A program made the translations under genes and the position numbers. DNA of 64,000 nt, from NCBI GenBank assembly GCA_002256025.1, contig NKIB01012640.1:1-64000 (forward strand), given 5' to 3'. The notes beneath the pieces were generated by a model. It had not been told where the DNA came from. It saw only the letters and a program-made list of their open reading frames with translations, and did no database searches. The stretch's first letter is position 1, and every line of letters begins with the position of its first letter. The stretch is from Asterionella formosa (lineage: Eukaryota). Positions 3,209 to 63,840 of the stretch are shown piece after piece.

Positions 3209-3248
3209 TACCGGTACCAGGTACCAGGTACCGGTACCGGTACCGGTA
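3209..3248. repeat. TA-spacer array (TA-CCGG-TA-CCAGG-TA-CCAGG-TA-CCGG-TA-CCGG-TA-CCGG-TA)
   Basis: Read directly; lies ~600 bp upstream of the 3855 gene. Confidence 0.9.
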
Positions 3249-3854
3249 GTACAGTTGGTTCGAATTGGTCGTCCCACGATCGAGGGAAACATAAAAAATC
3301 TACCCGGGTCGTACATAAAAGAAATTTACCAATATCGATCAGCATGCAATCGTACACCGATTTGCAAGCCAGCCAAAGCGCACATCAGCGACATGATTAC
3401 CGGTATTCGCTAAGTTTCTTTTAACGGTTTCAACGAAAATATTCCTTCACACCAAATACATATAGAAACCATTTCGAACAGCCCACTGGCATGTATACAT
3501 GAATATCTTCAGAAACGTGTATATTATATTGAATCGAGCGTGAATCGACATACCGGTAGACGTTGCCTGTTCCTACTGATGGATACTCAGGACTCCGGAG
3601 TACAGTAACCACTTTTGATCTTCTACGAGCTCGGAGTGTACGTTATATTTATTGGGAACAGTGGTGTCGTGTAAACATATATATATATATTAGGGCCGCA
3701 TGGCTGGGTAAATACGCCGGTAAGACATGCGTTCGGTGTTGAGTTGAGTTCCTCATCGAAATGACACACACAAAAAGCCCTCCAGAAAACAGAAAAGTCG
3801 GTTCTGTAATTCTATTCCCAAACTCATTGTCACACGAAATCGCAGAAGGTTATC

Positions 3855-4370
3855 ATGAGATTTTCTACCATTGTGATTTGCCTCGCGATTGCGAGTGAAA
3901 GCACGGCCACCCGCATTCCAGGGTCTCAGCTTCGCAGTCGTTCTCTTATTCAGACTCGCGAATTGGAAGAAGAGATTCCTGAAGATTATAATGCTGCAGA
4001 GGAATATGCTGCGATGATGCAAATGCAGGAGAAAGATGAAGCCGAAGATGAACAGGAGGATGTAGATACTGAAGGGGATGAAAATGAAAACGAAGGCCTG
4101 GGAGAAAATGAAAATGGGAATGAAGGTCCTGGAGAGGATGAAAAGCAGGGACCCGGAGAGGATGATTATTATGCGGAAGGCGATGACACCAAGGGCGAGG
4201 AAAGGCGCTTGGATGCCGTAGAAGAGGAAATCAATGATGATGACGCAGAAGTCTACGCCGAGATCAGTGGAGAAGTGGGAGGCACTGATGATGACGCAGA
4301 AGCCGTTGAGGAGATCGCTGTAGACGGGCTGGGCGACGATGAAGTTAGTGATGATGCCTCCAACGAGTAA
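3855..4370 (+). CDS. Secreted, highly acidic low-complexity protein (171 aa) with RXL motifs; silacidin-like architecture
   Basis: Signal peptide MRFSTIVICLAIASESTA; RSL, REL and RRL motifs precede D/E-rich segments; internal repeats GEDE/GENE and DDDAE; single exon. Confidence 0.75.
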   Translation: MRFSTIVICLAIASESTATRIPGSQLRSRSLIQTRELEEEIPEDYNAAEEYAAMMQMQEKDEAEDEQEDVDTEGDENENEGLGENENGNEGPGEDEKQGPGEDDYYAEGDDTKGEERRLDAVEEEINDDDAEVYAEISGEVGGTDDDAEAVEEIAVDGLGDDEVSDDASNE

Positions 4371-6826
4371 GGTGAGGAATCAGAATAGGCTGGGAACGAC
4401 GCTCTTCTATTTATGATTAAATGGAATGAATCAGAGCTTTACTGCAACTGCTGTACTGCACACAACATCATTGCAGCACTTCATGGCTCATAAGCTGTTG
4501 TGGTGGTCACTTCCTCGCGCAGATGCATATAAAATAATAATAAATCTTCAAAGTCTTGTCATTTCCAGGGAGTGGGAGTGATAGTGGCTTAGGTTGTTGG
4601 TGGGCCCGAGAAATGAAATTTGAGTTTCCCTGTTTTGTTTTGGTGTAGCTGCATGTGTGTCTTTTTGATAAGTTCTTACTATTGTCCTGTCTTTTGGTGA
4701 CATCTTTGTGTCCTCCATTGCAACTGGAAAGAAATGTGATACCTTTTATTTGTCCTGTTTTTGCCATATCTAATGAATGTTTCATGATAAACTTTATTCT
4801 TTCGAGGAATATTCCCTTTTACTTAGCTAACCTTGCCTTTGCTTTGACGTACTATGGATTACCAGGGCCTAGCTCTATTGTGAGAGGTAAAACATCTCAG
4901 AACAGCCTGGCACATGTTGGAACCTTTGTGGTGTAAAGCTATGAAGATTAAGTCAATGAAAAATGCACTGTTTTGTTGGAGCCAACACTTTTACATGGAA
5001 CCAATTCCATGTTAGTGCATGCTAACAGCATTTCGCAGCAATTTAAGAACGCTGTTGATTGGACTCCAAAAGACATGAATAACCGATGTACTAGGTTCAA
5101 CCTGCGAAAACAAAACAAGACAAAAACCAGACAATGTGATTCTAATTGTTTGTCATCAATATGATAAACCTTTGTATTCTATTGGCATTTCTCATTATCA
5201 ACAAATATAAATTGTTTCAACAACACACCATATGACTAGCTAAACATTATCCTACTATAATGTGAATTCCTTCATTGTCTCCCTGATCGACAGTGCCAGA
5301 CGTCAATACATATGTTATGTTGCTATCAGGAGGGTTAGAATTGTCTGAACCCAGGCTGTTCATGCCAGGAACAAGTGCCACGCAAGCTGCCCTGCTCCTA
5401 TCTCGAATGGAGGAGTAATAGTAAGGCGCTGTAAAAGTGAAGTTATTATATGAATTACTTCATTGTATATACATCATAACATGACATAATCTTCATCCTA
5501 ATGAAAATCACTTTCAAAATATATTGAAATAGATTATAATTTAACTGCGACTATAATTAGACACGATTTATAAAGTTGTTTCTATATTTGTGTCACTGCT
5601 TGATGTCTGGTCCTCTTCCCATCTACTCCAATTCTGAATCTCATCTCAATGCTTGCTGTCTCTTCTCCTTACCTGTTACTCTCCGACTGTGAATTCACCC
5701 ACTTTTCCGTTGTTTGATCCGCTTTTTTGTCTGTATCGCTCACACTAACAGTGAGAAGGAGTTACTCATTAGTTATAGTTTGTTTACACCACAACATAAA
5801 GTTTCATTCTACATGCACTTACCAGAATTAGATGTAGATTTTCAAATAATTCTATAAAAAATGAGTCAGCCGAATGTGTCTTAAGTTTCTATCAATAAAT
5901 CGTTCCAACACTGCTGTCTATTACTTACAAGTACTGTGGTTTATTTACCATTTTCAAGAAAGAAGCAACACGCATCTATCAGTTATGTTTTAACAGTTAC
6001 AAAATGTTCCATTTTGTATGTTTACCAATGATAGCACCAATTATCATTTTTCTTCTTTCCACATTGGTGGTTTCCCACTGAATGCAAAGTGAACTTTTGA
6101 TCACATGAGAAGAAAGCAGTCATTTAGTCTTTTTCAAACCAACAATCGATCATCCTGGCTTTGTCCCCCCATAGCTAGATTCCGTTGTTCACCTTTAATC
6201 CTTTAAAGTCGCAAGGTTTATCATTGTGTTGTAGCGTCACTTCAGTTTTCCTTGTCATGTGTTCTTGTGATCTTTCATTTCAGGAAGTGTAGTATGCATG
6301 AAAAGGAACATTTAAACATGATTTCAAATGTATTAGCCATGTAGTAAACATTTATTGAAATTTGCAAATGTAAAAATATATATTTATACAGTTGAAAGGG
6401 AATGGCTTAGCTAGCTGATTGAGTTTGTTGCCTTTGATCTGAAGTTGGTGTGTGGTTCGATTCATGCAATCTTGTTTTTGAGAAGCATTTGTTGGGTTCT
6501 GACGACTCACACCCTCTTTACCATCCCACATGGTTTTGCCTGCTGGTGTGCAATGACAGTACTCAAAACTGGCTTGACTCCTTATTGGTTATTGGAATTA
6601 GAAACAGCAAATCATCAGACTAACAAATTAGAAGTCAGGGAAAAAAGTACTCAAAATTTGGGGTGGAAATCAAGACAGGTGCTTTTGTTATTAGCTCGAG
6701 CAAAGTACAGCTGCAACTTATCAAGCCATGGCGAGGATCCTTCCCATGCGCTCCAAATACACAGTAGTTTTTGTGGGCTATCAAGCATTAAACAACTTTG
6801 TGGTAAGTCAAGATCATTAGGGAATC

Positions 6827-7750: not shown

Positions 7751-8574
7751 GCTCTGCTAGTGGAAACAATTCAGCAACCAACACAGGTAAACACACACAG
7801 CTGTCTATGGTGACACACTCCTGCCTGATATTTCATCAACGCCAATTTGCTAGCTCATTATGATTTGGATGCTAGCATCATCATAAAGATGTATGCACAA
7901 CAGCACCTTATCTGCTTTCGGGATTCTCATCTATTCTAGCATCCTCTCCCTGGGAATTACAAGACATTCTTTTCTAGAGAAGGCCAAGTTCCTTCTGAAG
8001 GATTCCATCAAACAGGCACAGAGCGGTCAGACTTCTCTGCACAAATTTTATTCCAGTATTTCTAGGAATCAATGGAGATCTGTCAATCCTCAGTGTGGCC
8101 ATCAAGGCCACAAACAGCACAACCCAAAATTTCCTCTTTCTTCGCCCATTTCTCAAGAATGTAGTGAGAGACTGGCTGAGGACCCTGCAGCATCACAGCA
8201 CATCTTTTGCACCACTTTGATCCTACTCTCATTAGAGAGAGTGTACTTCACATATGTTTTGTTGATATCTGGAGGGCGCAGGTTTTTCTCTGCCCAGGCT
8301 GGTCATCCCACCAGGAAGCGCTCCGCAGGCTCCCCTACTAACCTAGAGTAGTCTTAAGGCACTTTATAAATGAAGTTAATAATTAAAAGACATGATATAA
8401 TCTGAATGATGATAGTTAGTAAAGGGAAGTGAAAACACGGTATGAACAACTGCATTGCAAATCAGGAAAAACCCAATTGTTGCGGGACACATAAAAAACT
8501 TTTACCAAATGTTAAATTCTACTACTAATGTGTGCTACATAATCAAAATCATACCCTGTTGGTTTTCTGCTGGC

Positions 8575-9365
8575 TGGTACCTGATACCTGGTACGAGGTA
8601 GCAGTTGGCTGCCCGGTATAAATCCATAGGTTGTTCAACATATGTATTGGTCATACATATTTTCACCATACTGTGCCTGTTCACTATTGAATGACTTTGC
8701 TTACCTGGGGCACGGGGTAATAATCTCTGCTAATAGTGCACATTTATTATATGTACAGTACTGGTATATCGTCCACATACCGGTATGATACAAAAAATAT
8801 ACGGGTAGATGTATACAAAGTGTGGAAATATACCCGGTATCCACTTTCATCCTGCTTTTATACGAACATATTTTATTTTGATTTTTTAAATTCTAAAATA
8901 TATAATACCGGTACTCCGACCACCGTAGACTATCGGTACCGGTAGATGCAGTAAAGAAGCAAACAACAAAGGGGAAATGGCATGTTTGAATTCGACCACT
9001 TACCGTTACAGTAGCCGGCCTGTGCTCGAAATTGTATCGAAAGCCGGAAAATTCAATATTTGAATATTATTGAAATAAATTTCCATCATACTACCTGATA
9101 CCTGGTATCTGGTACCTGGTCCAAATATGCGATGATATACCCAGATATCCGTTTTCAGGATCATACCTGTAATAGTTAGCAGTACTCATATATATACCAG
9201 TATATATATCGCGGAATAGAAAAACAAAGCTAAACCTAATGTGGAATCGAGGCTTTACTTTTTGTAGTACGGGTTCTACTATTTATAGTATATAGGCGAC
9301 TATACTGCACCAGTACCTGGTTGGTACTACGTACCAGTACCCCCTGGTCCCTGTTACCTGGTAAT
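8575..9365. repeat. Dispersed TA-spacer units (TACCTGGTA, TACCGGTA, TACCAGTA, TACTGGTA) upstream of the TBC gene
   Basis: Clusters at ~8575-8595, 8755-8945, 9090-9120 and 9305-9365. Confidence 0.8.
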
Positions 9366-9428
9366 TCTATTGGAGAAAGAAACGACATCAAAATAGTTGA
9401 CAGCCCTCTTGCCCAGCATTTGTTCACC

Positions 9429-12400: not shown

Positions 12401-12760
12401 GAGGGCTTGACTCCCGTTTATAAGTTAAGCGAAACAGCAGCGGCGAAAACGGCAACCAAAATAGTCGGGAGTATCGTTCGAGATGCGCACGAGGCTTTTC
12501 AAGACACTGAGTCTGAAGCTTTGGCTTCACTTTACCAGCTAAGTGATACAGTAGCAGCGGAAACGGCAAACAAATTATTTGGGAGCATCATTCGAGAAGC
12601 GCGCGAAACTTTTCGAGACACTGAGCCAGAGGCTGTGGCGTCACTATACACAAAATTGAGTGACACACCAGCTGCGAAAACGGCAAACAAAGTCGTAGGG
12701 GGTATCATTCGAGGGGCGCGTGAAGCCTTTCGCGACACAGAGTTACTTAGCAACCTATAG
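9429..12760 (+). CDS. TBC1D20: TBC-domain Rab GTPase-activating protein (TBC1D20/Gyp8-like), 3 exons: 9429-9564, 9667-9871, 9946-12760
   Basis: GT-AG splicing reconstitutes LRELALTEGGLVN-DSIRKQAWPKLVG. Arginine-finger region QIDRDVAR, glutamine finger YYQGYHD, LSWIITWFAHD and RLFDAFLVSHP are present; TM helix ILIWGGIAIAVVAISIVLV. Confidence 0.88.
12311..12750 (+). repeat. Four coding tandem repeats of 38-39 aa at the TBC protein C-terminus
   Basis: LS.T.AA.TANK..G.I.R.A.E.F.D..PE units start at ~12311, 12425, 12539 and 12656 (114/114/117 nt spacing). Confidence 0.85.
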
Positions 12761-13569
12761 TATTGCCCAGCACTTCGCATTTTTGTTCATTCTCCAAGGA
12801 GAAAGACCTTTCTCTACTGTCCTTTTCGAAAGCAAAAAATTTGAAAGCGGAGCGATGTCAAATGCAGGTTTTCTAGTGGTTCAAAATGAATAAACGTCAT
12901 CTTGAAAATTGTACGCACAAAATGGCTAACGGGACCATGAGAAGTTGCTATCGTCGGCCTTACCTTGCAAAGCACTCCACTGCTCGGTTTAGCGGTAGAC
13001 GATCAATCAAAGTTGATAACATGTATGGCTGCCAAGCTTAGAAGGAATCAATTTTTTTGAATCAATGACAGCATACAAATAGATATCTACTGTGCATTGT
13101 TGTAGAGTGAATGACAATCACATTATCCGGGCAACAATCCCTAAAATGTTTTGACAACATTCATTATGATCTTGGCGTACGTTGTATCACATGCTGCTAT
13201 AACGGGGCAAAAGGTCGTCACCAGCGTTATATACGAGAAAAGGACGGACGGCTTGAATAGCTGTCGATTGAGATGGCATCTGCTATGCAAATTACCAGGT
13301 TCTATAGGAACTGGTACCAGTACCAAGGTACCTATTAGGTAGATGGTGTGGACCAGGATGCATCATGTACATTGTAGTGGGCAAAAAATGGTAGTTACCA
13401 ATGTCAGTCGAGGAAATCAAGTAGAAGTGACTTGACCAAACTAGCATTCTGACTAATTTTGGATTTGACCTTCTGGTTCACCCCTCTGTGTAGCAGTTCC
13501 TTACGATCTAGTATTATTTGTTGTTCATCCATTTATACATATTTTTTAAATTATTATAAATGATATCAA

Positions 13570-21044: not shown

Positions 21045-21527
21045 AGTACCGGTAGAAGACATCCATCGAATCGACATACCGGTGCTACGACGGTGTCCCT
21101 AGGTACACTGCATCAACATGCTCCTTGAAGAGGCGCGCAATTTACCGGTATAGTACCTGGTACCAGGGTGTGCATGGTTTTATCTTATGTTCTGTTATCC
21201 TGGTACCAGGTACCTCGTACAGACATACATATGTACATAGGTTTAAAGAGGTACCGGTATTCCGATATCGTTTAAAAATCGGTATATGGAGATACCGAGG
21301 GTGTGGAAGTGTGTCGCGATAAAAAAAGCTTACTATGTACTGGTATGAAAGCATTCCTAAATTTCAAATTTTGGTCTTTACGCCAACTTGCTCTAGTACC
21401 AGTACCACGTACTGTACGGGAGTACTTGGTACCGTATTTAGCCAGTCTAGAAGCAAACCACCGGTACCAGTACCTGGTGCCTGGTACCTGGTACCTGGTA
21501 CCAGGACTAGCGGTACTGGTACCAGGG
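21045..21527. repeat. Dense TA-spacer array cluster in a divergent promoter
   Basis: e.g. 21461-21505 CCGG-TA-CCAG-TA-CCTGG-TG-CCTGG-TA-CCTGG-TA-CCTGG-TA-CCAGG, with many single units from ~21045. Confidence 0.9.
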
Positions 21528-24534: not shown

Positions 24535-24576
24535 TACCGGTACCAAGTAGCAGGTACCTGGTACCTGGTACCAGTA
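24535..24576. repeat. TA-spacer array upstream of the PPR-like gene
   Basis: TA-CCGG-TA-CCAAG-TA-GCAGG-TA-CCTGG-TA-CCTGG-TA-CCAG-TA. Confidence 0.88.
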
Positions 24577-30164: not shown

Positions 30165-30701
30165 GATTGGATTTCGAAAGAAATTGGCTGTGAATTTGTT
30201 ATTTGCTTTTTACTGTTTGATATTTGACTATGAAGAAATGGACCACGACTGCGTTCGTTTTATGAGCGATGGCTGAAACATGAGACCCACACATAATAAC
30301 GAAGGAAGCAGCAAAACGCTTTGTTCTCTTCATGACTCTTTTTTGCATACCGGTACTGGTACTAGTCTAGTACGGAGAACAGGTGTATAAGAATACCAGT
30401 ATTCATTTGTGCATGTCTCTACAAACTCAAATCGCCACGGCAGTATTTTTGACGAGGTACCGGTATATGCCAAATGCATACAGCGTTGAAGACAAGTCGT
30501 ACTGTAATGGAAAATGAACCCGGTAAGTAACTCAAATTTATCTACCGGTACCGGTACTAAATTGTTTCGTACATGTCAAGTGTCCATGTGATCATGTACT
30601 CATAGAAAGCAAAATCCCCAAGGAAATGGAAGTAAGAATAGTATACCGCCACGTACCTTAACATTTTATATTGTGTATCATAAAATGATATATTTCATTA
30701 T

Positions 30702-32044: not shown

Positions 32045-34561
32045 TCATGTGCTTATACCGTTGCCGTTTGTCATGTGTGCGTTGCGCCCTCGCAGCAGCG
32101 AATCTGACAGTGAACCCGGCAGCAAGTCTTCACGAGTAATGATTCCAACAACTTGATTGTGGTGATTCACGACTACTAAAGAGCGAAGCCCTAGTGTCCG
32201 AAAGAGGCGGTATGTTCTCTGAATCGATGCGGTCTCGTTGACAGTATAAGGAGCTGTGTTGGCGTATGGTCTAAGATCCACCCAGCAATTCCGATCAATG
32301 GAACGCATTTCGACGTCAGTGATTCTAGGATATCTTGGATAGGCACGTTCAATAGTATCCCATTGGACAAGGGGACTGAGACGCCTGGGTCCCAGTGATT
32401 CACATCCATCATATTCTTCTAAAAGATCTGGGTTTCCAAAGGCTCTACGCTGTAGCAACGTACATAGAATTGATCGACTGGCAGTTCCATATAGAGTACC
32501 CCCACTGGCAACATCAACGATAGGGAACGTGCCATGCTTGCAGCTTCTCAGCAAATCATAGACAACACCGGCACGCTCGACAGGTCGAAGGCACTTCACT
32601 TCTGTGCTCATTACTTGACCAGCTACAATCTCGTGTCGCTCCGCGATCGGCGGGACTTCTGCTTCCAAGAAAGGAATATTCTTCAGCTTTATATGGATAT
32701 CGTAGAGACCATCGTTAAAAACATTACCAGTGAATCGAGCGGCCATTAGGGTAAGCATGAGTGGCAGAACATATTGCATGTCTCCAGTAGCTTCTAGTAG
32801 GATAACAGTGAGAGAGATGGTCATTCTGGCCATTCCGCCAAGTACAGCGGCAGCACCCATCAGGGCATAGGTGCCACTATCGGCAAAGGTCCCATTTGTA
32901 TGATCTAGCTTGTGAAGTAAGTGACCACATAGACGTCCGAAAGCAGCACCAGAGAGAAGAGATGGAACAAATAATCCACTTGGGACAGCAATGCCATACA
33001 CAACACTGGCCATAGTTATGTATGGAACAAAAAATAGAAAAAGGGCGGCAGACGAGAAGGTGGCTGGATCGTCTGCCCCAGATTCCCGGAAATGGAAAAG
33101 CTGCTTAATGGCAGTGTCAGCCTCAGTAAAGATAAGACTGGCAACTTCGTTGTATTCTTTTCCGGGCTGGCAGTTGAATGGTACCAAAGCATCCACGAGA
33201 TTCTTTTCTTGTTTGCTCCAGTCTTGCATATCTGTTGGCAACTCCGTACATCTATTCCAAAGCAAGGGCATAACAAACGAAACGGTGCTCACGACCAGAG
33301 AAACAACAATCACTTCAGTGAGGCGCTTCGCTTTCGAGTGGTTAATTCGCTTCATTCGCCAGATTGTCAAATTCTCATTGGCCGCATTGAAGACAGCTCC
33401 AATCAACCCACCAAGACATCCAAGAATCATGAATAGAGAGAGCTCCCAAATCGAAAAGTTTGACGATCCCCCACTTATGCTGTTGAATTCCCCAAAACTG
33501 AACAACTTTTCAACGTTTGCTTGTCCCCACCACGAGTCAAAGTTACGAACAGCAAATAGAGTTCCAAGAGTGCACATGGCGCAAAAGAAAGCTCTCCATG
33601 TCAATTTCGTACTCCAATAGGAAGCTCCTTCTTCCAATGAGAACAAAACGCCACCGATGGGAGCACCGAATGCGGATGCAACACCAGCAGCTGCCCCACA
33701 CGCAACAAAATCCCTTTTTTCTCTGTCATTTCGAAAGTCACTAAACTTGCTGAACGACGTGTCCACTCCCATGAATGTGGTTTTTCCTTGTGAAATGCTT
33801 GCCGCAACCACAGCTCCTGAGTGCACCATGGGACCTTCCTTTCCTACTGGTAGTCCGGCAGCGACACTAAAAGTGATCCCAATCACTTTGCAAAAGAGCG
33901 TCTTGATCCGTACAACCCTAGGCAAGTCAATTCCGTTCAAGAAGCATTTAATTTCGGGTATACCGGATCCAGCAGAAACAGGTTCCACGTACACAAAGAG
34001 GCTGGCTATGATGGCAAAAAGTGTTTGATAGAAAAGGAAGGCCAGAAAAGCGGATCCTCCGAAGGATTGGGGTTTCTGACTGGACTCTAATCCATCAGTT
34101 CCTGTAGCATGATCATCGTTCATCAATAAATCATCCTCTGCGTTGGGCGCTGTAGCGGCGGTGTTGAAATTGTAGCGTGCCGCCAACAGGCCATACACCG
34201 TCTCAAACTTGTACCTCGAAAGCGACTTGGTTGCGAAATTGCAAAAAGTGGCAACAAGCGCTTGACTGACGCCAATCAAAAAAGTTAATACCCATCGTTT
34301 CAAAGCTCGCTTCTTACTTGTTGTCCACCACTGCCCTCTATTGGTAAAATGCAGCTGAGCGACATAGGCTCTCCAGACTTCTGATTCGTCCGGTTCGTAA
34401 TTGTGTGACTGAACAGTATCTTCCTTGTTGAGGGGCTGATAGCGGCCACCTCCGTATCCATCTCCTCGGAGTGACGTGCCGCCATCTTTGTACATATCTT
34501 CATTCAGGGGATCTTCAAAATAAGGCGGCATTGGTGAGGGGTTCACGCAATCTTCGTCCAT
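32045..34561 (-). CDS. CLC-family Cl-/H+ antiporter (CLC-6/7, plant CLC-d-like) with C-terminal CBS domains
   Basis: GSGIPE, GKEGPMVH (gating Glu), LFSLEEG (proton Glu), PSGLFVP and GLYD, plus a CBS pair; start MDEDCV at 34561. Confidence 0.95.
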   Translation of the reverse strand: MDEDCVNPSPMPPYFEDPLNEDMYKDGGTSLRGDGYGGGRYQPLNKEDTVQSHNYEPDESEVWRAYVAQLHFTNRGQWWTTSKKRALKRWVLTFLIGVSQALVATFCNFATKSLSRYKFETVYGLLAARYNFNTAATAPNAEDDLLMNDDHATGTDGLESSQKPQSFGGSAFLAFLFYQTLFAIIASLFVYVEPVSAGSGIPEIKCFLNGIDLPRVVRIKTLFCKVIGITFSVAAGLPVGKEGPMVHSGAVVAASISQGKTTFMGVDTSFSKFSDFRNDREKRDFVACGAAAGVASAFGAPIGGVLFSLEEGASYWSTKLTWRAFFCAMCTLGTLFAVRNFDSWWGQANVEKLFSFGEFNSISGGSSNFSIWELSLFMILGCLGGLIGAVFNAANENLTIWRMKRINHSKAKRLTEVIVVSLVVSTVSFVMPLLWNRCTELPTDMQDWSKQEKNLVDALVPFNCQPGKEYNEVASLIFTEADTAIKQLFHFRESGADDPATFSSAALFLFFVPYITMASVVYGIAVPSGLFVPSLLSGAAFGRLCGHLLHKLDHTNGTFADSGTYALMGAAAVLGGMARMTISLTVILLEATGDMQYVLPLMLTLMAARFTGNVFNDGLYDIHIKLKNIPFLEAEVPPIAERHEIVAGQVMSTEVKCLRPVERAGVVYDLLRSCKHGTFPIVDVASGGTLYGTASRSILCTLLQRRAFGNPDLLEEYDGCESLGPRRLSPLVQWDTIERAYPRYPRITDVEMRSIDRNCWVDLRPYANTAPYTVNETASIQRTYRLFRTLGLRSLVVVNHHNQVVGIITREDLLPGSLSDSLLRGRNAHMTNGNGIST

Positions 34562-34814: not shown

Positions 34815-35380
34815 TACCGGTACTCTCTCCTTACCTCCTAATGATGCTGTAGTATGTATGACTGTGGGAACTCAATACATGCAAGCACCCCTCAATAGCT
34901 ACCGGTATGCGTACATAGATATTTATGTAGTGTGAACAACCAACAAATTAATAGAAGGGAAACAACACACCGACTGAAGCAAGGAGCGGAGGAACACACC
35001 ATGAGAAGATTTTGGTGCGTGTTATACCGGTACATGGATGTCCAATACGTAAAACCAGCGGTCGTCTCTATCATGATGGTATTCCAATTCTAACTGTATT
35101 TACCGGTAGTTTAGACGGCAGTACTACCGTATGTTCTGTTAATTACCACCGGTATGTGCCAATCCGGGTATCATATGGTGCATACAGTAGGAGCAAGAAT
35201 AAATTCTTGAAAACAGAGGGTTCTCACTAGCAATGCATGGCTGTTTTTCTTGCTTCCTTTGCTTTTGTCATCCTGTACGGGTACTACCGGTATGTACATT
35301 TGTACATCCGAGAGTACTCTAATATGTAGGTATGTGTAGAGTAAAGAGTACCAGGTACCACCAGGTACCTGGCACCAGGT
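34815..35380. repeat. Dispersed TA-spacer units in the CLC / Lon-N divergent promoter
   Basis: TACCGGTA at ~34816, 34900, 35025, 35101 and 35285; TACCAGGTACC...AGGTACCTGG at ~35349-35372. Confidence 0.8.
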
Positions 35381-38774: not shown

Positions 38775-38979
38775 GATTGATGACGAGTGAAGTAAGACAA
38801 GAGCAGCTCTCCGCAACGGTCAACTTCAACGATGAAATGTGGACAACTGCTTAATGGCAATTCTATTCTCATCAATACATTTATGATGTTTGTTCTTTGC
38901 CAACTCCATGACGGTCTGTGTCTGATGGTCTGATCTGACGATCTGAAGATGGCTCGCCACCTTGCTATGCAAGAAATGT

Positions 38980-39280
38980 ACCGGTACGTGCTACTTGGTC
39001 CTGGTACCGGTAGTTGCCTGTGTAAATACCTGTAGTAGTTTACCGTACCAGGTACGTACCATTTACATTGTGCGTGTACATACAGTATTTCATAAAATAG
39101 CTGGTAAAATCATTATAAAATCTATTGGCTTTCGTGCAATGGTCTGGCCTTCTACACAGGATTGAAGTGATACTACCGGTACATACACGTACCGGTACTA
39201 ACGGTAGCTATAGCTAGAGAAATAACCACAAGCAAACCTTCGTTTTCTATGATACACCAAAGTACTGGCACCAGTACCAA
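38980..39280. repeat. TA-spacer units upstream of the S1 gene
   Basis: TACCGGTA, CCTGGTACCGGTA, TACCAGGTA and TACTGG..CCAGTACC in 38980-39280. Confidence 0.75.
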
Positions 39281-41501: not shown

Positions 41502-41547
41502 TACCTGGTATGGTACCAGGTACCTGGTACCTGGTACCAGGTACCGG
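41502..41547. repeat. TA-spacer array upstream of the PhyH gene
   Basis: TA-CCTGG-TA-TGG-TA-CCAGG-TA-CCTGG-TA-CCTGG-TA-CCAGG-TA-CCGG. Confidence 0.9.
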
Positions 41548-46033: not shown

Positions 46034-46362
46034 GTTGTTTCCGATCTCTTTTGAACTGTCTTGTGTTATACTGTGTATCCTCAACTGTCTGCGACGGAGT
46101 ACGGAGATTTCATTACCATAATAAACACAGCATCACGTGTAAATTATGACTTTTCGTAGTGATCAGCAATTTGATTGTTTTCGATCATACATGTTGGGTG
46201 GCGGCGGTGCACGACAGCCGCTCACGCACATCATTATGTCGAGCGCGACGATTTTATGATGTGCTGACGATACTAAATACACTGGATTGGATTCTTTTAA
46301 ACAAGGTGAAAAAGAAATTTACCAAAACAAGGTTAATCATGTATTGGCCTACCTTTTGTGAT

Positions 46363-48197
46363 TAGGGCTGCGAATACGCCAATGCAGCTCTTTTTTCCAA
46401 TACAAGGTATTCCACGAAATGATCGGAATTTTTTCCCAATACAAGAAATGAATAGTTTCTCCGAAATAGGGTTTAATGTTCAATACAAGGTGGGGGAACC
46501 TTGCACTACTAGTTCTAATATTTCGCATCCATCTTGTTATGGTTTACAAATTAGATCATCAGTTCCAATTTAATGTATAACTTGTTTTGAACATGCCCAT
46601 ACAAGGTGTACCTTGATTTGGACCCAATAACTCATTTGCGAAACCATAACAGTATGAGGATAATCATTTTAAGGTTAATAGCAAACTAACATCATCTATA
46701 ATAGTGTATTCTTTTGCCAACGTTAATAATTATTTGCTATTTTAAAAAGAAACGAAAACATTATTGAGTCCTACTACAGTAACAGAGAATTTCTGAAAAT
46801 GTTTGAATCATGTGTTGGAAAACGAGCCCAAGCATTGCCATCATCGCAATTCACCAATCATTTACCAGTCGTTGCGAATTGAAGCGCTCTGAACGATGTT
46901 GACAGTGAAGCACTTAAATGACAGAAGCAAGTTCAAGGTTGAGAAATAGCATGCACACGAACAATACTAATACAAACCTTCACCAATTTGGACTACTTAC
47001 ATCATTTTGCATGAAACAACTGGAGCTGACTACTTTCTTTCCAATCACTCAAAAATTCACTGATCCATCAATTGCATCGAAAGGAGCATTCAGACAGAGC
47101 TGGTGTCTCTGAAGCACTCCTGAAATAAACAGAATCCCGATGATAGGTGAGAAATAATGCACAGGCAATTCTTTGGTATGTCCAAGAAAGTCGCAGGACC
47201 AACATGCTATGGCGTAAAACATTTTCAATTTCTTAAGCATGGCACCTTACCTATCATTATGAGTATTCCCTGTTCAGCTGGCTGGAGGTGAGTGAAAGAG
47301 TGAGACATTGATGGCTTCCGCAAATCGTCATAAAGGATAAGAAATATAACTTGGATGTATTATTATTGTGATGTGAATAAATAGCATCAACTCAGTGATA
47401 GTTTCCCGGTATATGTATACTATGCTATTATACACAGTCAGTACAGAATAATTTGAGAGAGGACATATGATCATGTGCCAGGCAGACAGATTAAAAAATT
47501 TGAAAGCATACATTACTGTATAATAATATGAAACACAAAATGACAGTTTTAAATGATCAATACGCATTGCAGACACATAGCCAAAATTTGGAAAATTTTG
47601 AAAATATATATTACTGAATAATCATAGAAATCAAAAGAAAACGGTTTTATCAAAATGCATCATACTATGATGATATTGTATGTACAGTTTTCAAGCACTA
47701 TAGAGCAATACAGGGTCAGCCTTGAATTGCAAAATATTGTCACCTTGTATCGGGACTCATGACCTTGAATTGGGATAAGACGTGGTACCGCCAAAACCCA
47801 ATACAGGGGCAACCTTGAATTTGAAGATATTGTCACCTTATACTGGAACTTATCACCTTGTATTGGGACATGACTTAGTACAGCCAAAACCCAATACAGG
47901 GGCAACCTTGAATTCAAAATGTTGCCACTTTGTGTTGGGAAATAAACAGATCCTAATATAGGGAATACCTTGTATTGAATTATATTCTCATGACAAATAA
48001 AGGAATGCCTTGAATTGGAGTGTTGAAACCAGGATATTTTTCACCTTGTATTGGACTTGACATACGAACCTTTTTGCCAATACAAGGAGGTGAACCTTGT
48101 ATTGGAATGGTGTATCACCTTGTATTGGAAAAAAAGAATATCAAATGACCGATACCTTATATTGGAAAACGTTTATGATGCCCAATACAAGGTACGC
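46363..48197. mobile_element. Non-autonomous DNA transposon remnant with inverted subterminal CCAATACAAGG repeats
   Basis: TTTTTTCCAATACAAGGT (46391-46408) is the exact reverse complement of 48117-48134. Many CAATACAAGG/CCTTGTATTG copies at both ends; left edge TAGGGCTG is hAT-like; right terminus not resolved. Confidence 0.7.
47706..47935. repeat. 93 bp tandem repeat (~2.5 copies) inside the element
   Basis: CAATACAGGG..CCTTGAATT units start at 47706, 47799 and 47892. Confidence 0.85.
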
Positions 48198-48441
48198 CTG
48201 GAATCATTGGGAATGAGTCGAAACTGACAAAGTGCGCACAAAACGTGCACCATCCCGCCTTCCAGGTAGTCTAAAGGTAGACTTCCGTAATGCAAATGAT
48301 GATTATAAAATTGATGATTGTGCACATGACTTAATGGATTCTGGTAATAAATATATTTTGTGCCATGACGAAATAGTATGTACACGCAATACCGACATTC
48401 GGGGATTCCATTACGAAGTAAAATCAATCACAACTGCAATT

Positions 48442-50048: not shown

Positions 50049-50915
50049 TACCGGTACCGGTACTTGGTACCTGGTACCCCCCTGGTAACAAGATCCAATC
50101 ATCATCATATCATACGTATGTAACGTGCTGGTAACCCTAAGATAAGAACCGTAACACTTCTTAACCACAGACCATGTCGTCATTCCTCAGGCAGCCAGAC
50201 TGACATGACGGAATCATCTGTGTTGATGCGGCAAGGGTATTATGCCAGATTGATTTCAAAAATTGCGGGTGCGACTACCGGCATGCATTCGAAATCACGT
50301 CCTTATATTTCATGGTGGGAAGGACCAGTCGGTACTGGAATACGTATCATTGCGGACCCAGACACCAAAAGTCCTCATCGCAAGAGGTTTGTGTGCGGTA
50401 CTGGTACCAGGTAGCAAATGACTGTACATATCTATTGAAAAGGTCCTACCGTACTCCTTCTCGCGGGCTGGGTCTCTCTTCAGATACCCGCAAATAGTAC
50501 CGGTATACACTAAACGGCAGTTATCTGGTGGTAAAATAAGTCTACACTTTCTGTATACTTTTAGACTCTACTGAATTCCTCTCACGTAGCAGGTTCACGA
50601 TTCTCCTCAGGTAGCCGTACAAAAGTATTCACTCAAGTGTATACCGGTACTTTCCACGTCAACTATCGTGGTGTGCTTTGTGAACGTACAATGTCAGTAG
50701 CGCAGTACCAGGTAGGAGGTAATTGATATTCTACACCACCAGCCAGCGGCCGTTTTCAATTCCCGACTCGATCAACTAGTACCGGTATGCTGGTATAGGT
50801 ACAAATGTACCAGTGCCAACTCCCCTAAACCCTCCTAAAACCTGGTACCAGGGTTTCCAGGTAACATACCGGACTCCGGTACCTGGTACTCCCAAGGACC
50901 AGGCACCGGTACCTT
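50049..50915. repeat. TA-spacer arrays upstream of CCB3
   Basis: 50049-50087 TA-CCGG-TA-CCGG-TA-CTTGG-TA-CCTGG-TA-CCCCCCTGG-TA; further units at ~50400, 50498, 50642, 50706 and 50780-50915. Confidence 0.87.
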
Positions 50916-50940
50916 TGTGACACTTGATAGAACTGACAAC

Positions 50941-51250
50941 ATGCCCCAAGCCACAGGGATCCCACCACATATTGATCACTCACAAAAATTGAGTGAGATT
51001 CTTCTATAAGTCACTCAGATAACATCAATGATGATGCATCAGACAGAGGAAATCAAAGATTCTGTAGCTCAAGCAATTGAAGAGCATGACATCCATGGTG
51101 GTGTCATTACAATCAATTTTCTAAACAATCGGTTGAAAGAGCATCAAAAACAGCTTGAACATGAGCTTTTTGATCATCTTCAACAAGGTGGAATAAATGA
51201 TCAGGTAACTTGATGACTCCCTGAACAAGAACACAAACAAGGTCAACAGA
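50941..51250 (+). mobile_element. Probable Crypton-type (tyrosine-recombinase transposon) fragment
   Basis: MPQATGIPPHIDH followed by SVAQAIEEHDIHGGVITINFLNNRL resembles, from memory, the TGIPPH region of stramenopile Crypton proteins; the recombinase domain itself is absent. Confidence 0.4.
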
Positions 51251-51615
51251 AGGGGATAGATAATACTTTATACCGATATATCATTTTCTGACTAATTCTA
51301 GAATTATGCTAAAACGATCCCCTCTTTTGCCCTTTGGCACAATATTAGTTAGTTCATTAAGCTACATGAGAGTTAGATCATTTTTTAACTTGAACATACA
51401 TTAACTGAGATCTATTCACTTTAAAAGTGACAAAATGGTCGAAGTAGCTCACTGCCATTGATTAAAATTTTACCATACATGTAGTTATTTTATAGGTGAG
51501 GGTTAGAAAACATTATATCGTTTGCATGTTTTTTTCGCAGTAGTTGCATCATTCTTATACTGGTGGTGTTGCATTTTTTCGCACTAGTCATTGCATCGCT
51601 CGTTCTTAGATCTTG

Positions 51616-52420
51616 TCATGTAATCATAGGAGCAACCAAAGGGTGAGGAAGTGGCACCATTACAGTTGCTACTGGTACTGCAGTGTCGCCACGCATCATG
51701 GTGTCATGGCATCTGGTAAGTAGAAGTTGCTTAGTTGTTGGTAATGGAAGATCGCTTGCTTGCTTGTACCATGTTGCCATTGTTTTCGTTTGCGCCACTG
51801 TCCACTCTGCAGCGGGCTGTTTGCTTAGAATTCTGATTACATAAAACCTTGTTTGCAAGCGCCGCCCATGTGTGCATCTATTTTCTTATTCTCTCGCTCA
51901 CTCTGCACTTCTTCCTCATGCCTCTTCCGTTTCAGCTGGTCATCGACCACTTCAGGACCCAATAAGTACCACCCTGCAGCAACATGAAGACCGGCTGTTA
52001 TTCGTTTATTGCTTGCAATCGACCTTAGTGCAGTTTCTTTTCGTTGGCGGGCAAGTTTGTCAAGTTTTATTCCGTTTCTAGCATCCTCATGATTCCGATA
52101 CTGTATGACCTGATCAACAAGGGTTCCAGTGGCTGATGCCTTGGCTCAAGTTTAGTCCAGATGGGGAAATCAAAGAGACTGCCTGGTTGATTATTTTTTG
52201 CTTCTGTTTGCAGATTCGGTACTTGTCAGTTGACTTTCCGGATGGAGCTACAAGCTGTAGTTCAATGGACCCAACCTTGTTCAGCAACAGCTTTTTGGTT
52301 TGAAGCGATATCTTTCGACACCAGATCAACAATGCCATCCCTTTCAACAGCAAATGCAGCACAGCGCTTTTCCTTGGGTGAGTAAGTCTCTTTTGTATTT
52401 TGTGAGTTGAATATTGCAAC
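51616..52420 (-). mobile_element. Decayed C-terminal half of a diatom pogo-like transposase
   Basis: Across frames: LNLSQG..., LVDQVIQYRNHEDAR...KRITAGLHVAAGWYLLGPEV, and EWTVAQTKTMATWYKQASDLPLPTTKQLLLTRCHDT. Confidence 0.55.
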
Positions 52421-53153
52421 TAGAATTTGTCATCAGGGTAGAAATTAATGAGGTAGTATGTCCTGCCAATGACTTTGAATCATTTAGTTTCATAGTAGCA
52501 GGTAATTTGTACTAGTGAATTAGTTGCCCTTCCCGCCTGATTTAGCTTCCGCAAATGGTACTGCTGGACCATAGGTTTTGTTAGCCAAGCCAGTGTAGCC
52601 GCCTTCGATGCAATAATATTCGATATTGCACCATATGGTAGCTAGCTAGTAGTTTGCCATTGTTATTAGCCTCTCAAAGTTTCTAATTATGTAACTATAT
52701 TTTCTTAAATAATTGACTTTACAGTCTTATCCAAAGAATGAGGTATCACCTTGTACTTTTTGGATTTTTGACGTTATTTCTTGGTGTAGGTTTCATCGTT
52801 ATTAATGAGATGACTGCGATTTGCTTCATTTTTTGGTTTGTCGGAAGCGATTTCTGCTGTGAATTATGGTCTCTGACATAAAAATATGGCTCCATGTGTT
52901 AGCCTTCAAGAAATATTGCATTCATTTACTAAGAGTGACTGGTTGATTCATTTACTGCCAGTTTCCACCATGATAGTTGGAAGCGAACATCGGCAGCTAA
53001 ATAAGCAATATTGCTTCTACATAATGAAGCAACCACCAGGCGCTTTATTTGGCTCCTAGGAGCTAAAAAGACATTTGAAAAGCCATCACATCATTCTGTC
53101 CTTGACTTGGTGCATTTGCTTCTTATACATATGCTCACACCATCATCGTAGTC

Positions 53154-54944: not shown

Positions 54945-55420
54945 GTACAGTGCAAACTGCCATGAAAGGACACAGGAATGAAGAGTTGTTTTCGCTTGTA
55001 TCGTGACTTGTTGTTGTCCTCGCTTTGATGAAAGATTCCCTCTGTTAAAGCAACAAAAGAAGGACAAATAACATTTGGTGAGTTGAACTTTTAGTCAAGT
55101 CCACATGCACGCTCGTTTCATCATTGAAACGGAAGTTTGCAATGAATAATGCAGTGCCGGTAAGCTGCATTTTTTTCGTTTGTCTAGAAACACCGTGCGA
55201 ATATCATTTTGACTTGCTTTTAATCATAACTATAATTGATTCAATCTTACTCCCAGGTAAGAACAACTGACTACCTGGTACCAGTATAGTGAACCAAGGC
55301 CATCACAAGTCGAAAACACGTACAGTTGCTATATTGGACCAAAATTGACATTTGTTTCAATAAATCTGTCTTTGCTAAATCATTAGTTATTCATGACTGC
55401 AATGTGTTAAAGAAGTATCA

Positions 55421-56146
55421 TTAGTGTGCAACAGCATTATAACCTTTTGGTGTGGCCCCACTTGGCTCCCTGACAATGATCGTTTCTTCATAGTATTCAG
55501 CTGCTGAGGGACTATACAAATCACGGTGTCCTTGTTCGTTGAAGAGTTTTTCACTAATCTTCGTCGTCACGAATGTTATTGCTTTCCCGACTCCATCTGT
55601 TGCTCTCTGCAAAAGATGGTGCTTTCGGTTAGCCTCCTTCAGCGAGTTCCAGGAGTATACCACAAACGTTTTGGCCCGTTCCAAGATATTGTGGCGACGG
55701 TCCACTTCTTTCGCTTTTTCCCAAGCGTTATTTGCAGCATCTTGTCCCTTTCTCACAAGATTATGCTTTTGGTTAACCTCGACGGCCTTTTGTCGTGCCA
55801 TCAATGCAACTTGGCCGATGGCTCGTGCACAGTCGCCGGCAGCCCCTTCCTTCTTTGCGAAGTGGGCAGCCCCAAAACCTGTCAAACAGGCAAAGATGGG
55901 ACCTCCAAGTAAGCAACCTATGACTCCCGCACCTACACCTGCACCGACCATCAAGGATTGTTCATATTCTTCAGTAGTTAGGGTCGTGCCACCATCTTCC
56001 ACTCCATCCACTGTGACCATGTTGGAGTCGTGGGACGACAAGGGGTCGACGTCAGTGATTGTCTCCTCAAGTGGAGCTGATGCAGCAGGAACCAGAGGAG
56101 GACTAGCCTCGTCGTCGTCATAGATAAAGTTCTTATTTTCAACCAT
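55421..56146 (-). CDS. Hypothetical protein with a glycine-zipper hydrophobic hairpin and amphipathic repeats
   Basis: Clean 241-aa ORF; GAGVGAGVIGCLLGGPIFACLTGFGAA followed by three (E)VNQKHNL/EVDRRHNI/EANRKHHL repeats. Confidence 0.72.
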   Translation of the reverse strand: MVENKNFIYDDDEASPPLVPAASAPLEETITDVDPLSSHDSNMVTVDGVEDGGTTLTTEEYEQSLMVGAGVGAGVIGCLLGGPIFACLTGFGAAHFAKKEGAAGDCARAIGQVALMARQKAVEVNQKHNLVRKGQDAANNAWEKAKEVDRRHNILERAKTFVVYSWNSLKEANRKHHLLQRATDGVGKAITFVTTKISEKLFNEQGHRDLYSPSAAEYYEETIIVREPSGATPKGYNAVAH

Positions 56147-56286
56147 GGTGGTAACTATCTATGCTCAAATGTCTGGCTGAAGAGGACGTATAAGATTCCT
56201 TGCTGTTGTTCTGTTCAATGTGTAAAGTTCGGATTTTATGTCGCAGAACCTGTGATAGTGGGATGTATCTTAAAACAGAGCTGTCG

Positions 56287-56535
56287 TACCGGTAATAGGA
56301 CCTGGTATTCCTACCAGGTACCCGGTACCTGGAACCAGAGTACCGGTAAAATGATTGTTCCAATGAAGAGCACGACTTGAGAGACGACTCGCTGGACTCA
56401 ATGGAATTGACAACGGGCGCCAGCAAGCAAGGAGTTGCGGGAATTTTGACATCATTATCCACAACTAGATTTTCTCGTTAGCAAATCTTATCAGGACTGG
56501 TACTCCAGTACCAGATACCGTACGCCGGTACCATA
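56287..56535. repeat. TA-spacer units in the divergent promoter of the hypothetical gene and Hv1
   Basis: TACCGGTA (56287), TACCAGGTACCCGGTACCTGG (~56312-56332), TACCGGTA (56341) and TGGTACTCCAGTACCAG (~56499). Confidence 0.82.
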
Positions 56536-56667
56536 CACAGCTATCGATGAATATGAAAATATCAATTCGAAATATCCCATCCACCGCTGTCTCGCGACCT
56601 GGACTGCGAATGCATTTAATGGACCATCATTACTTCTAGTCACAGCTATAAAGTTTTCAATTGAACC

Positions 56668-59415: not shown

Positions 59416-59849
59416 GATGTGTGTTCGGCGGAGGCTTTAGACTACTGAAATATAGTCTGGCTAATAGTGGTGGAGATATAGATGGTGTTCCGGACGAATA
59501 TATGAGAGAGTTTTCTGAGGACATATCTTCCGAGCGAACGTTGCAAATGCGAAACCACGTTAACCGGTAGTGGCTTTATCCGAGGACGAAGAAAGTTAGC
59601 AGCTGACTGGTCATCGATTTGTGTCATACGTGGCCTTTTGTCGTTGGATCTTCCCGTCGGCGACAGTCAACCTAAGGAGAATGACGTTGTAGGAGAAGGA
59701 GTGCGTACAAAAAATCGGTGAGGGATTGCAAGACGGTGAAGATAGAGTGTCAATGACGTGACTCGAAGTCGTGTGTGATGACAAATGTCGGAGTTTGAAT
59801 GTGGTCATCGCTCGGCACCTGCCTCGTCATTTGTGTTCTTCTACAGGTG

Positions 59850-60022
59850 CCTGGTACCAGGTAGTAGTACCTGTTACCAAGTTAGCAGGGGTATCTGTCC
59901 CAGCATCCAATGCAAAGGGGTGTACACCCTGTATGGAGTACCTCGTAAAGGCAACTCCGGGAGACAATGCAACTGGTACCAGGGTACCTGGTACGGTACT
60001 GGTACTGGTACTGGTACCAGTA
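59850..60022. repeat. TA-spacer arrays upstream of the desaturase
   Basis: 59973-60022 CTGG-TA-CCAGGG-TA-CCTGG-TA-CGG-TA-CTGG-TA-CTGG-TA-CTGG-TA-CCAG-TA; CCTGGTACCAGGTA at ~59850. Confidence 0.9.
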
Positions 60023-61596: not shown

Positions 61597-61692
61597 TGGC
61601 CCCAGAAATAGCCCCCACCATACCTGATTGTGTCCCAGAAATTGCACCCAGCCATACCTGCTGATTATGCCCCTTAAATTTGCATCCAGCCT
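61597..61692. repeat. Degenerate ~36 bp tandem repeat x3
   Basis: CCCAGAAAT.GC.CCC..CCATACCTG repeated. Confidence 0.6.
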
Positions 61693-61745
61693 TACAAACT
61701 GTACAACACATCAACTACTGGAGAGGGGCCTGTCTGCATTATTGA

Positions 61746-61777
61746 TACTGGTACCTGGTACTGGTACTGTACTGGTA
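61746..61777. repeat. TA-spacer array next to the TIR elements
   Basis: TA-CTGG-TA-CCTGG-TA-CTGG-TA-CTG-TA-CTGG-TA. Confidence 0.88.
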
Positions 61778-61871
61778 GTTGCGTTGATGTGATGGTGTGA
61801 TGTGATGTAACACAAGCTATGTACTGGTATGTCATAGACCAACACTAAATACTGATATATACTACCAGATA

Positions 61872-63390
61872 CCCAAGTAAAAAACTGCATTGACCCACTG
61901 ATGGTATAAAAAGCACATTTTGTTTTAAAAAATCATTCATTTTCTATTACTTAAGCTCCAGAATGTTTCCTGAGCATATATCAGATGGAGTCATACTGCT
62001 AGTTCTCAGCTGATTGGATGTCAATCTTTTGTTAATTTTGGTCAAAAGTGGCAATCAAAAAAAGTGAAAAGCACAGATTATCCCAAGTTTGGATTTCTCA
62101 TCTTATATTGTATACAATGAGGTATATAAATTTCTTGCATTTTATGTCTTATCCATAACCTTGTTAATAATAAATCTGTACATAAAAATTGATGAGACTT
62201 GGAGCGGCCAGCCATGTAATACCGGTATCTATGTAGGCAGAGCATCATAAGTACCTGGTACCAGTAAAAAACTGCCATGACCAATTGAGAATATTTTTGA
62301 ACTGCCGTGACCCATTGAACGCAGAATAACACGTTTTGCAATCAAAACTCAAATAAATATAGATTTTGAGACTTCTGGCTTCTTCCCGAGAATATAGGCT
62401 AGTCAGCCATGTAATTAGTTTGAGATTTGGAGCAAGTTATTCATCAATAACACGGATTAGGGTAAGTTTAGAAGTCACCACATCATATGATATACGATGA
62501 TCAACATAATGATTTGAACCTTCACCTCATTTGCGACAATATAGTAAATCTTGTCTTGGTATTGACTTCTATGGAGATGGCAAATTATTTAGGCACATAG
62601 CATCATCATGCAAATGCATAATGTATGATTACGGGTATAACAGGTAGGGAGTACCTACCAGGTTTTCATCGCACCTTTCTAATAACACACATGCCAAGTG
62701 CTTTAACACATGACCTCATCTGTCCTCAAAAATGTATATAAATTTATATACGTTTATCTGGAAAAAAAGTATATACTGCCGTGACCCACCATTGAAATCA
62801 CTTTTTAGCTGTTTTAATTATCATTGTATCTTTCTGATGAAATTGTTCAATCAGAATTCTAACACAACAGCTTGATTTATCGATGCTGCTCTGACACTAT
62901 CGAACAAACGGATCTGCAATTTGGTAGAATTTACCATTAGTTGGAGGAGTCAAACAAACACCCTAACTCAATGGGTCATGGCAGTTTTTTACTGGTACCT
63001 ACCCATGATGCGACCAAAACTGGTACATCTATAGTACCAGGAATGGTACTGGCTGGTACCAATTTAATGTATGGAGCATCATGCATTTTATGTCTTTTCA
63101 CTTTCAACCAAACAGGATAATCCATGTTCACCAATGAATATAAAATTACTTCCAGGTATGGTAAAATTTTCATTCACTGCATTGACCCATTGAGACTGAA
63201 TTTTACATCTAGATGAAAAAAAATATCTTCTGAACCAGATGTTCAATTTAACTAGGAACAGGATGCTAATGTACCGATGCCTTATGACATCAATACTTCT
63301 GAACAAATTTCAGAGAGAGGCGAGCTAAGTGTTAGTCGAACTGATCAAACGAATGGGATAAAACAGTGGGTCAATGCAGTTTTCTACTGG
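61872..63390. mobile_element. Outer non-autonomous TIR element (TA-flanked, CCAG...CTGG-type ends)
   Basis: Left AGTAAAAAACTGCATTGACCCACTG (61876-61900) matches the reverse complement of 63364-63388 at 24/25. The right end is followed by TA-CCAGG-TA; the left extreme is slightly degenerate (TA-CCCAAG). Confidence 0.8.
62261..62995. mobile_element. Inner 735 bp non-autonomous TIR element (MITE) with TA target-site duplication, nested in a related element
   Basis: 29 bp TIRs CCAGTAAAAAACTGCCATGACC(A/C)ATTGAG match at 28/29; TA at 62259-62260 and 62996-62997; internal ACTGCCGTGACCCA copies at ~62301 and ~62776; no ORF. Confidence 0.88.
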
Positions 63391-63840
63391 TACCAGGTAT
63401 CAACAGCCACCTATATGCAATGAACCAGGCCGAATGTTAATTTTTGACTCCCATGGCGACTTCACTGCCGCGCCTCCAATTTGATGACAGGAGTCGCCAC
63501 ATTGATTTCTTAATTTGGAACAATCACAACCAAACAGGACTTTCTGATGCGAAAAGCTTCAAGAATGTCTAAATTCCCTCTACTTCAATTGACATTACTG
63601 GGAGTTGCCAGCTTAGAATAATTCGGTGTGGATGCGAACGCGAATTCTTTCTATGCTTGTCGGGGTTCGCATATTCTCACAGCAAATAGTATGGAAGGCA
63701 TGGTATTCGCTCCCACTACTGGTACCTGGACACCTTGCGAATTCCTCATTTGATTCCCTGATTTGCTTAGCAATCACAATTTGGGGAACACAAAATTCTC
63801 TCCTGCTATTATCGACTTGTTACTTCTCACAACCAACATC

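Follow-up and report, generated by a model that had tools for sequence, protein, structure and literature searches.

What has placed short strings between TA dinucleotides, singly and in arrays, in the non-coding DNA of the diatom Asterionella formosa? The question is raised by the first 64,000 nucleotides of contig NKIB01012640.1 (GenBank assembly GCA_002256025.1), hereafter the window, in which units of the form TA-x-TA lie preferentially upstream of start codons and also adjoin two nested inverted-repeat elements with CCAG...CTGG-type tips. A sequence-only reading of this DNA had proposed that the units are footprints left by excision of such a transposon, stacked by repeated insertion and excision into a record of transposition. 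We found the units strongly enriched, and they may be excision scars of TA-targeting cut-and-paste elements with CCAG...CTGG tips, scars that would stack on one another. This origin, to which we give an even chance of being right, is the best single explanation because it alone covers the exact strings, their strict TA bounds, the A/T symmetry of their central base, the single units and the landing context of the elements.

A core unit is defined here as CCGG, CCTGG, CCAGG, CTGG or CCAG between two TAs; W denotes A or T and S denotes C or G at the central base of CCWGG and CCSGG. Counts cover the 64-kb window, which contains 3756 TA dinucleotides and 1074 neighbouring TA pairs spaced 2-6 nt, and expected values come from 100 dinucleotide-preserving shuffles. 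Four public sequencing runs (X1, X2, X6 and X7) were compared with the window as contigs only, and this comparison draws on 12 of 90 insertion or deletion (indel) rows and 24 of 1995 rows for loose contig ends. Uncovered parts and summed contig depths were not counted as evidence of absence or of copy number.

Enrichment of TA-x-TA strings

The five core strings occur between TAs 104 times, against 1.84 expected. Each of them contributes: CCGG was found 43 times (0.34 expected), CCTGG 18 times (0.16), CCAGG 13 times (0.09), CTGG 18 times (0.53) and CCAG 12 times (0.72). Permutations of the same letters occur on average at most 1.0 times each, so that control strings show no enrichment. This tabulation of x against controls of equal composition, a check that the sequence-only reading had proposed, confirms the TA-x-TA observation in the window. 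All five enriched strings consist of a prefix of CCAG and a suffix of CTGG, as the footprint form of target, terminal bases and target demands. The proposal that x nearly always has this composition stands for these five, which are the only clearly enriched ones in the set of 15 such strings, but not for TGG, which is near background together with CC, CG, GG and CCA, and hardly for CGG (3 occurrences), which is as weak as CCG (6).

The TA bounds are strict. Both sides are TA in 43 of 141 CCGG and 31 of 129 CCWGG occurrences, and any other pair of flanks is seen at most 4 times. Where more than a dozen clusters had been claimed, 23 clusters with at least three GGTAC/GTACC matches were counted, and the seven arrays that had been named are all present. 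Tandem Repeats Finder places 15 of its 43 rows in the TA-x-TA family. In addition, TA-CAG-TA and TA-CTG-TA are raised about 4-fold, with 13 and 9 occurrences against 2.85 and 2.74 expected; scars of CAG-tipped elements would leave such strings, and so would trimmed scars of the same family.

The nested elements and their landing context

Two non-autonomous elements, one inside the other, lie near the right end of the window:
61872-63390, + strand: outer element, 1519 bp, with TA flanks; left tip decayed to CCCAAG, right tip CTGG.
62261-62995, + strand: inner nested element, 735 bp, with CCAG...CTGG tips, TA flanks and perfect 22-nt ends.

Both are non-coding and carry terminal inverted repeats (TIRs), of 33 nt at 97% identity in the inner and 25 nt at 96% in the outer element, and their end pattern matches four times in the window and never in the shuffles. 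The TA-flanked TIR elements of the earlier proposal therefore exist, and CCAG or CTGG stands beside TA at three of the four tips; the precise CCAG end that had been attributed to both fails at the outer left tip. A sub-terminal site, ACTGCCRTGACCCA, is repeated in both elements, with 7 copies in 61.9-63.4 kb. The family itself is repeated, since up to 52 different X1 contigs cover one element position; summed depth over the element is far above that over the flanking genes, although depth is not a copy number. When metagenome contigs were scanned with the end pattern, 14 loci matched, and two of them, L005 and L012, are true copies, both non-coding. Viral contigs scanned with the same pattern gave no matches. 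L012 is complete and reads gatag-TA/CCAG on one side and CTGG/TC-CCTGG-TA-TGA-TA-CCCAG-TA-CCAGGGG on the other (slashes mark the element ends), which shows that the same kind of array adjoins an element copy in another sample.

Compared with L012 and L005, the inner element has 39 additional terminal nucleotides (62261-62300), so that two end-like sites follow one another. About 42 nt that most other copies carry are missing from it (62442-62445), with 21 X1 loose ends at 62445 among those listed. The other 12 of the 14 metagenome loci were judged chance matches in unrelated DNA. Five of these (L004, L009, L010, L011 and L013) share one 90-nt stretch around the match, on contigs of about 50% G+C, and this stretch is a conserved sequence of some unrelated organism.

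The elements sit beside such units. The target TA of the outer element adjoins a CCAGG unit (63391-63399) and that of the inner element a CCTGG unit (62252-62260); counting L012, all three complete copies have a reconstructed target TA next to a CCWGG unit already present, and the notion that the element prefers to land at old scars holds. At 6 of 7 termini a G precedes the TA. In X1 and X2, the best-supported loose ends of other copies among the rows listed (17, 17 and 15 contigs) diverge only after TACC or TACCT, and their consensus continues GGTA.... TA flanks are present at 6 of 7 termini, and the same termini fit a 4-bp GTAC duplication with CAG...CTG tips, exactly so at 5 of 7. The termini do not discriminate between TA duplication by an element with CCAG tips and a G/C preference and GTAC duplication by one with CAG tips, and the scar strings are identical under the two. 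At the outer flanks of the scars, G precedes TA (position -1) in 78 of 162 half-sites against a background of 25%, and 13 of 43 TACCGGTA are without either flank base. TA duplication with a G/C preference is therefore favoured. GTACGTAC occurs once in the window.

Promoter-side position of the units

In the 700-nt stretches upstream of the 14 start codons modelled, the units reach 5.81 per kb, against 0.73 downstream. Their density is 0.08 per kb in coding DNA and 1.89 per kb elsewhere, the latter class holding 49 units. Counted per TA, 49 of 651 upstream TAs and 4 of 332 downstream TAs carry units (p = 8e-6), and 11 of the 14 modelled promoters have at least two units. This position is compatible with insertion into open chromatin and equally with a cis-element.

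Single units, arrays and central bases

Single units make up 68 of the 81 runs, and 20 of these 68 have no related motif within 30 nt, which is unlike a slippage microsatellite. The arrays mix 3-, 4- and 5-nt spacers and both central bases, and the largely homogeneous tandem units of a slippage microsatellite are not found. The central base of CCNGG units is mixed within arrays: 8 of 23 clusters hold both A and T, and the totals are 17 CCAGG, 21 CCTGG and 1 CCSGG. Such mixing, almost wholly of A and T, fits scars better than a slippage repeat; by point mutation, C or G should arise no less often than the other of A and T. Variants with one mismatch are found at every unit position, with an excess at CpG, and the decay of the units looks neutral.

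The arrays and clusters of the window are as follows:
3209-3248: array of six units, CCGG CCAGG CCAGG CCGG CCGG CCGG.
8574-8600: degenerate array CCTGA CCTGG CGAGG, with single units at 8759, 8778, 8906 and 8937.
9092-9363: degenerate array (9092-9120) and loose cluster (9313-9363).
13313-13336: short array CCAG CCAAGG CC.
21143-21525: densest scar-like region, 11 core units at most 610 nt upstream of the start codon (21653) of an amino-acid transporter.
21461-21525: array within the densest region.
24535-24576: array CCGG CCAAG GCAGG CCTGG CCTGG CCAG, upstream of a PPR gene.
30539-30557: short array CCGG CCGG, upstream of a minus-strand RING gene.
34815-35369: five isolated TACCGGTA and an array (35348-35369) in the divergent CLC/LON promoter.
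38979-39198: cluster of several single TACCGGTA and one CCAGG unit, upstream of an S1-domain gene.
41502-41547: mixed array (CCTGG TGG CCAGG CCTGG CCTGG CCAGG at 41502-41543), 163-196 nt upstream of the PhyH start.
50049-50087: array CCGG CCGG CTTGG CCTGG.
50397-50412: short array CTGG CCAGG.
56287-56348: array and single units in a divergent promoter.
59853-59871: short cluster with a CCAGG unit, upstream of a desaturase gene.
59973-60022: array (CCAGGG CCTGG CGG CTGG CTGG CTGG CCAG at 59977-60022).
61740-61777: array CTGG CCTGG CTGG CTG CTGG, some 100 nt to the left of the outer element.
63022-63060: scar-like GGTAC-rich cluster within the outer element.

A further stretch at 56501-56543 has TA-x-TA form with the non-canonical spacers CTCCAG, CCAGA, CCG, CGCCGG, CCA and CACAGC, and X2 contigs break on both sides of it (at 56499 and 56541). 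Two matches in coding DNA, at 33845 and 35509, were judged to be chance; by its reading frame, the one at 33845 falls within an unbroken, conserved coding stretch of the channel.

A possible route from excision to arrays

We infer the excision chemistry, the order of events and the gain of one unit per cycle as follows. On one strand, the transposase would cut inward of the element end by a few bases, and both flanks would keep TA and a short piece of the tip. Two CCAG overhangs could then be end-joined through their C-A-G parts with one central mismatch, which would give TA-CC(A/T)GG-TA, and trimming would give TA-CCGG-TA and the 4-nt forms. The element would prefer promoter-side TAs in a (G)G-TA-C(C) context. 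Since each scar would make new TAs of the preferred kind, scars would attract further insertions, and re-excision from a scar would leave the array longer by one unit. Slippage or repair synthesis may copy units locally in addition.

Can such stacking account for the number of adjacent units? If 104 events chose at random among non-coding TAs, 3.8 adjacent pairs would be expected, against 23 observed, and to reach 23 requires an approximately 10-fold preference for scar TAs. We also modelled 61 events without slippage, with equal choice among G-TA-C sites and a naive pool of the 149 non-coding GTAC that do not border a unit. In the model, 17.5 +/- 2.9 pairs were adjacent, 31 units stood alone and the longest run had 4 units; the corresponding figures for the 61 observed units other than CCGG are 16, 35 and 4. 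In quantitative terms, then, slippage is not needed to make a ladder plausible; agreement of this kind shows consistency and is no proof. That arrays grow by one unit in each insertion-excision cycle is likewise plausible.

A stronger version would be a self-reinforcing scar ladder, in which the palindromic TA-CC(W)GG-TA scars are the sites that the element prefers, promoters hold ordered and countable records of its cycles, each event shifts a promoter by 6-7 bp, and the scars form the main class of short tandem repeats in the genome. We put this forward tentatively and consider it more probably wrong than right in this full form.

Weighing the explanations

Several observations weigh against a scar origin, or at least against scars as the whole account. 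The element ends rest on 4 insertion events only. No transposase domain was found in the 34 open reading frames (ORFs) of the window, so that the intact transposase with these TIRs that the sequence-only reading had looked forward to did not appear there. CCATGG, which would be the full fill-in product, does not occur as x in the window, and neither does CCCTGG. An alignment of three element copies shows no indel of the TA-plus-x type, only the 39-nt terminal duplication and the 42-nt deletion in the window copy. The 12 indel rows include neither a filled/empty allele pair nor a located whole-unit polymorphism, and none of them falls in an array. X7 contigs over the array at 50049 have 0 gap letters, and over 59975-60022 the X7 and X2 contigs have 1 and 5 gap letters in total; neither array shows a whole-unit change. 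Of the proposed stacked-footprint record, the match of spacer strings to element tips and the use of scars as landing sites thus hold, whereas one unit per cycle does not follow from the alleles, among which no such pair was seen. Two differences equal one unit in size: an X2 contig over 50133-50520, which spans the short array at 50397-50412, is 7 letters longer than the window somewhere in that span and otherwise identical, and X2 and X6 contigs overlapping in 55328-56499, which includes 56287-56348, are each 6 letters short in total over theirs. A metagenome scan with the transporter protein for alleles of the densest array gave 64 pattern matches and no relative.

The unit types also differ among themselves. 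G and C flank both sides in 7 of 43 CCGG, 20 of 31 CCWGG, 7 of 18 CTGG and 6 of 12 CCAG units, a difference between CCGG and CCWGG with p = 3e-5; G at the outer flank is found at 35% for CCGG, 66% for CCWGG and 54% for the 4-nt units. Since the types differ in context, one uniform process is not enough. Isolated TACCGGTA thus makes a separate class, which may stem from a second element family, be a context-dependent repair product or be a motif unrelated to the element. Moreover, CTGG and CCAG are the CpG-transition products of CCGG, and these two variants (18 and 12) exceed all other transitions (at most 4 each). CpG reaches 0.66 of its expected frequency in non-coding DNA and 0.87 of it in coding DNA, TpG and CpA are near 1.3, and this depletion outside genes suggests cytosine methylation and deamination. 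CTGG and CCAG could therefore be in part CpG decay of CCGG; their array-like context indicates that decay is not the sole source.

If the units are not scars, TACCGGTA and the GGTACC repeats would be a promoter-proximal motif, such as a binding site or structural element, or a lineage-specific microsatellite, on which the element merely lands as it needs TA in open chromatin; the likeness of tips and repeats would be chance or would reflect targeting to end-like sequences. The 8-fold higher density upstream than downstream of start codons, with units in most modelled promoters, is also expected of a cis-element, and just such a positional bias is found here. TACCGGTA and TACCWGGTA are palindromic, as binding sites of dimers are, and the flanks of isolated TACCGGTA are near background (G at -1 in 35% against 25%), so that they do not share the landing context of the element. 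The first 3-4 bases of the element would then have to match the repeat by chance, however, the spacing of GTAC cores varies (5, 6 or 7 nt) within one array, and the decay of the units at CpG and other positions looks unconstrained. Further scar-like clusters are found within the outer element and, outside modelled promoters, in repeat-rich DNA; the class that is neither upstream, downstream nor coding holds 49 units. A literature text search for the motif returned only primer and plasmid matches and no paper that names it. We regard an origin without scars as unlikely but by no means remote.

A smaller departure from the scar origin is that only the first unit or units of an array are scars, and that arrays then grew, either by slippage of the 6-7-nt unit or by repair synthesis primed by microhomology at one break; the self-complementary GGTACC would favour the latter. 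Of 23 pairs of neighbouring units, 10 are identical where 4.4 +/- 1.9 would be expected (p = 0.006), and the asymmetric units stand in runs of one orientation (CTGG three times from 59997, and the CTGG-rich array at 61746) that look copied. Also, 15 of 31 CCWGG units are in runs, against 9 of 43 CCGG. The excess of identical neighbours shows that unit copying happens as well, in keeping with the earlier remark that slippage may contribute. As a general account of the arrays it is nevertheless quite improbable in our judgement, because unit length and central base vary in most arrays, the model arrives at the observed run lengths with no copying, and element copies sit on scar TAs. Excision scars, with some local copying, remain the explanation that we prefer.

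Genes and other repeats of the window

The window consists of long, mostly uninterrupted ORFs with ordinary eukaryotic domains, among them RabGAP-TBC, glycosyltransferase 64, amino-acid transporter, PPR, RING, CLC channel, PhyH, PCIF1 and a cytochrome-b5/desaturase fusion. For the desaturase, 866 relatives were found at E <= 1e-50, and the named ones are pennate diatoms, including Cylindrotheca and Nitzschia, with identities of 76% in Fistulifera, 78% in a Synedra-labelled transcriptome and 74% in Phaeodactylum. An Rfam search and a tRNA scan of the window gave no matches. At least 20 public runs from 15 studies contain the stretch or part of it, at least 8 of them with at least half of the sampled words, and the runs are labelled algal or freshwater metagenomes. 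On these grounds the stretch was taken to be nuclear DNA from a pennate diatom of fresh water.

Other repeats are present beside the TA-x-TA family. In the C-terminal part of the RabGAP-TBC ORF, a 114-nt tandem repeat (12426-12743; 2.8 copies, 76% matches) encodes a repeated segment of about 38 residues. A separate family at 46300-48200 repeats a CCAATACAAGG-type motif many times, in either orientation, and includes a 93-nt tandem repeat (47706-47928); in all four runs, summed contig depth over it is high and internal joints are numerous. A high-copy repeat at 50450-52950 has sharp left boundaries, where contigs of several runs end loosely (50449 and 50482). No ORF in it has a Pfam match, and it contains several TACCGGTA and CCWGG units.

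Significance and comparison with known systems

Excision footprints are well known experimentally and are rarely visible as a sequence class of a whole genome. If the scar origin is correct, this diatom lineage carries a natural record of DNA-transposon activity at single promoters that can be read from sequence, excision rates could be estimated from population data, and a mobile element makes its own hot spots and generates length variation in promoters. Because so many public runs hold the stretch or part of it, the proposal is directly testable. A full-text literature search, judged from result lists without supplements, gave no description of stacked footprints or of this diatom motif.

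The closest known footprints are those of Tc1/mariner elements. In the sections of two papers that we draw on, the non-transferred strand is cut inside the element, and the flanks keep a short 3' overhang (PMC7827188, PMC6943129). The stagger at excision is 3 nt (PMC7827188), the footprint is TA, the terminal 2-4 nt and TA, with A or T as the central base (PMC6943129), and that of Sleeping Beauty is TACAGTA or TACTGTA (PMC6943129, PMC7827188). The units described here are like these footprints, as far as those sections describe them, in having a few terminal bases between TAs, a central A/T that pairing of overhangs with one mismatch would give, and trimmed variants. Unlike Sleeping Beauty footprints, the scars would be fixed in the genome at about 1.6 per kb in tandem arrays, and they are known from sequence alone. 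They also differ in that CC(W)GG would need a 4-nt overhang under TA duplication, or a 3-nt one if the duplication is GTAC.

Stowaway-like MITEs (miniature transposable elements with inverted repeats) of the Tc1/mariner/pogo group are non-autonomous TA-flanked inverted-repeat elements. Like these, the elements of the window are short and non-coding, have terminal inverted repeats and TA flanks, occur in many copies, can be nested and lie near genes. They differ in that they are larger (735 and 1519 bp), have repeated sub-terminal sites and land beside their own scar-like strings. Microsatellites and slippage repeats associated with transposons are short tandem units near mobile elements, and they share with the arrays this form and position and some copying of neighbours; the units described here differ in being heterogeneous in length and central base, mostly single, and bounded by TA in every case. 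Finally, bacterial elements of the IS30/IS3 type target sequences that resemble their own ends, and in both cases insertion beside end-like sequence makes hot spots self-reinforcing. Those elements are bacterial and use a different chemistry; in the diatom, the end-like targets would be scars and not resident ends.

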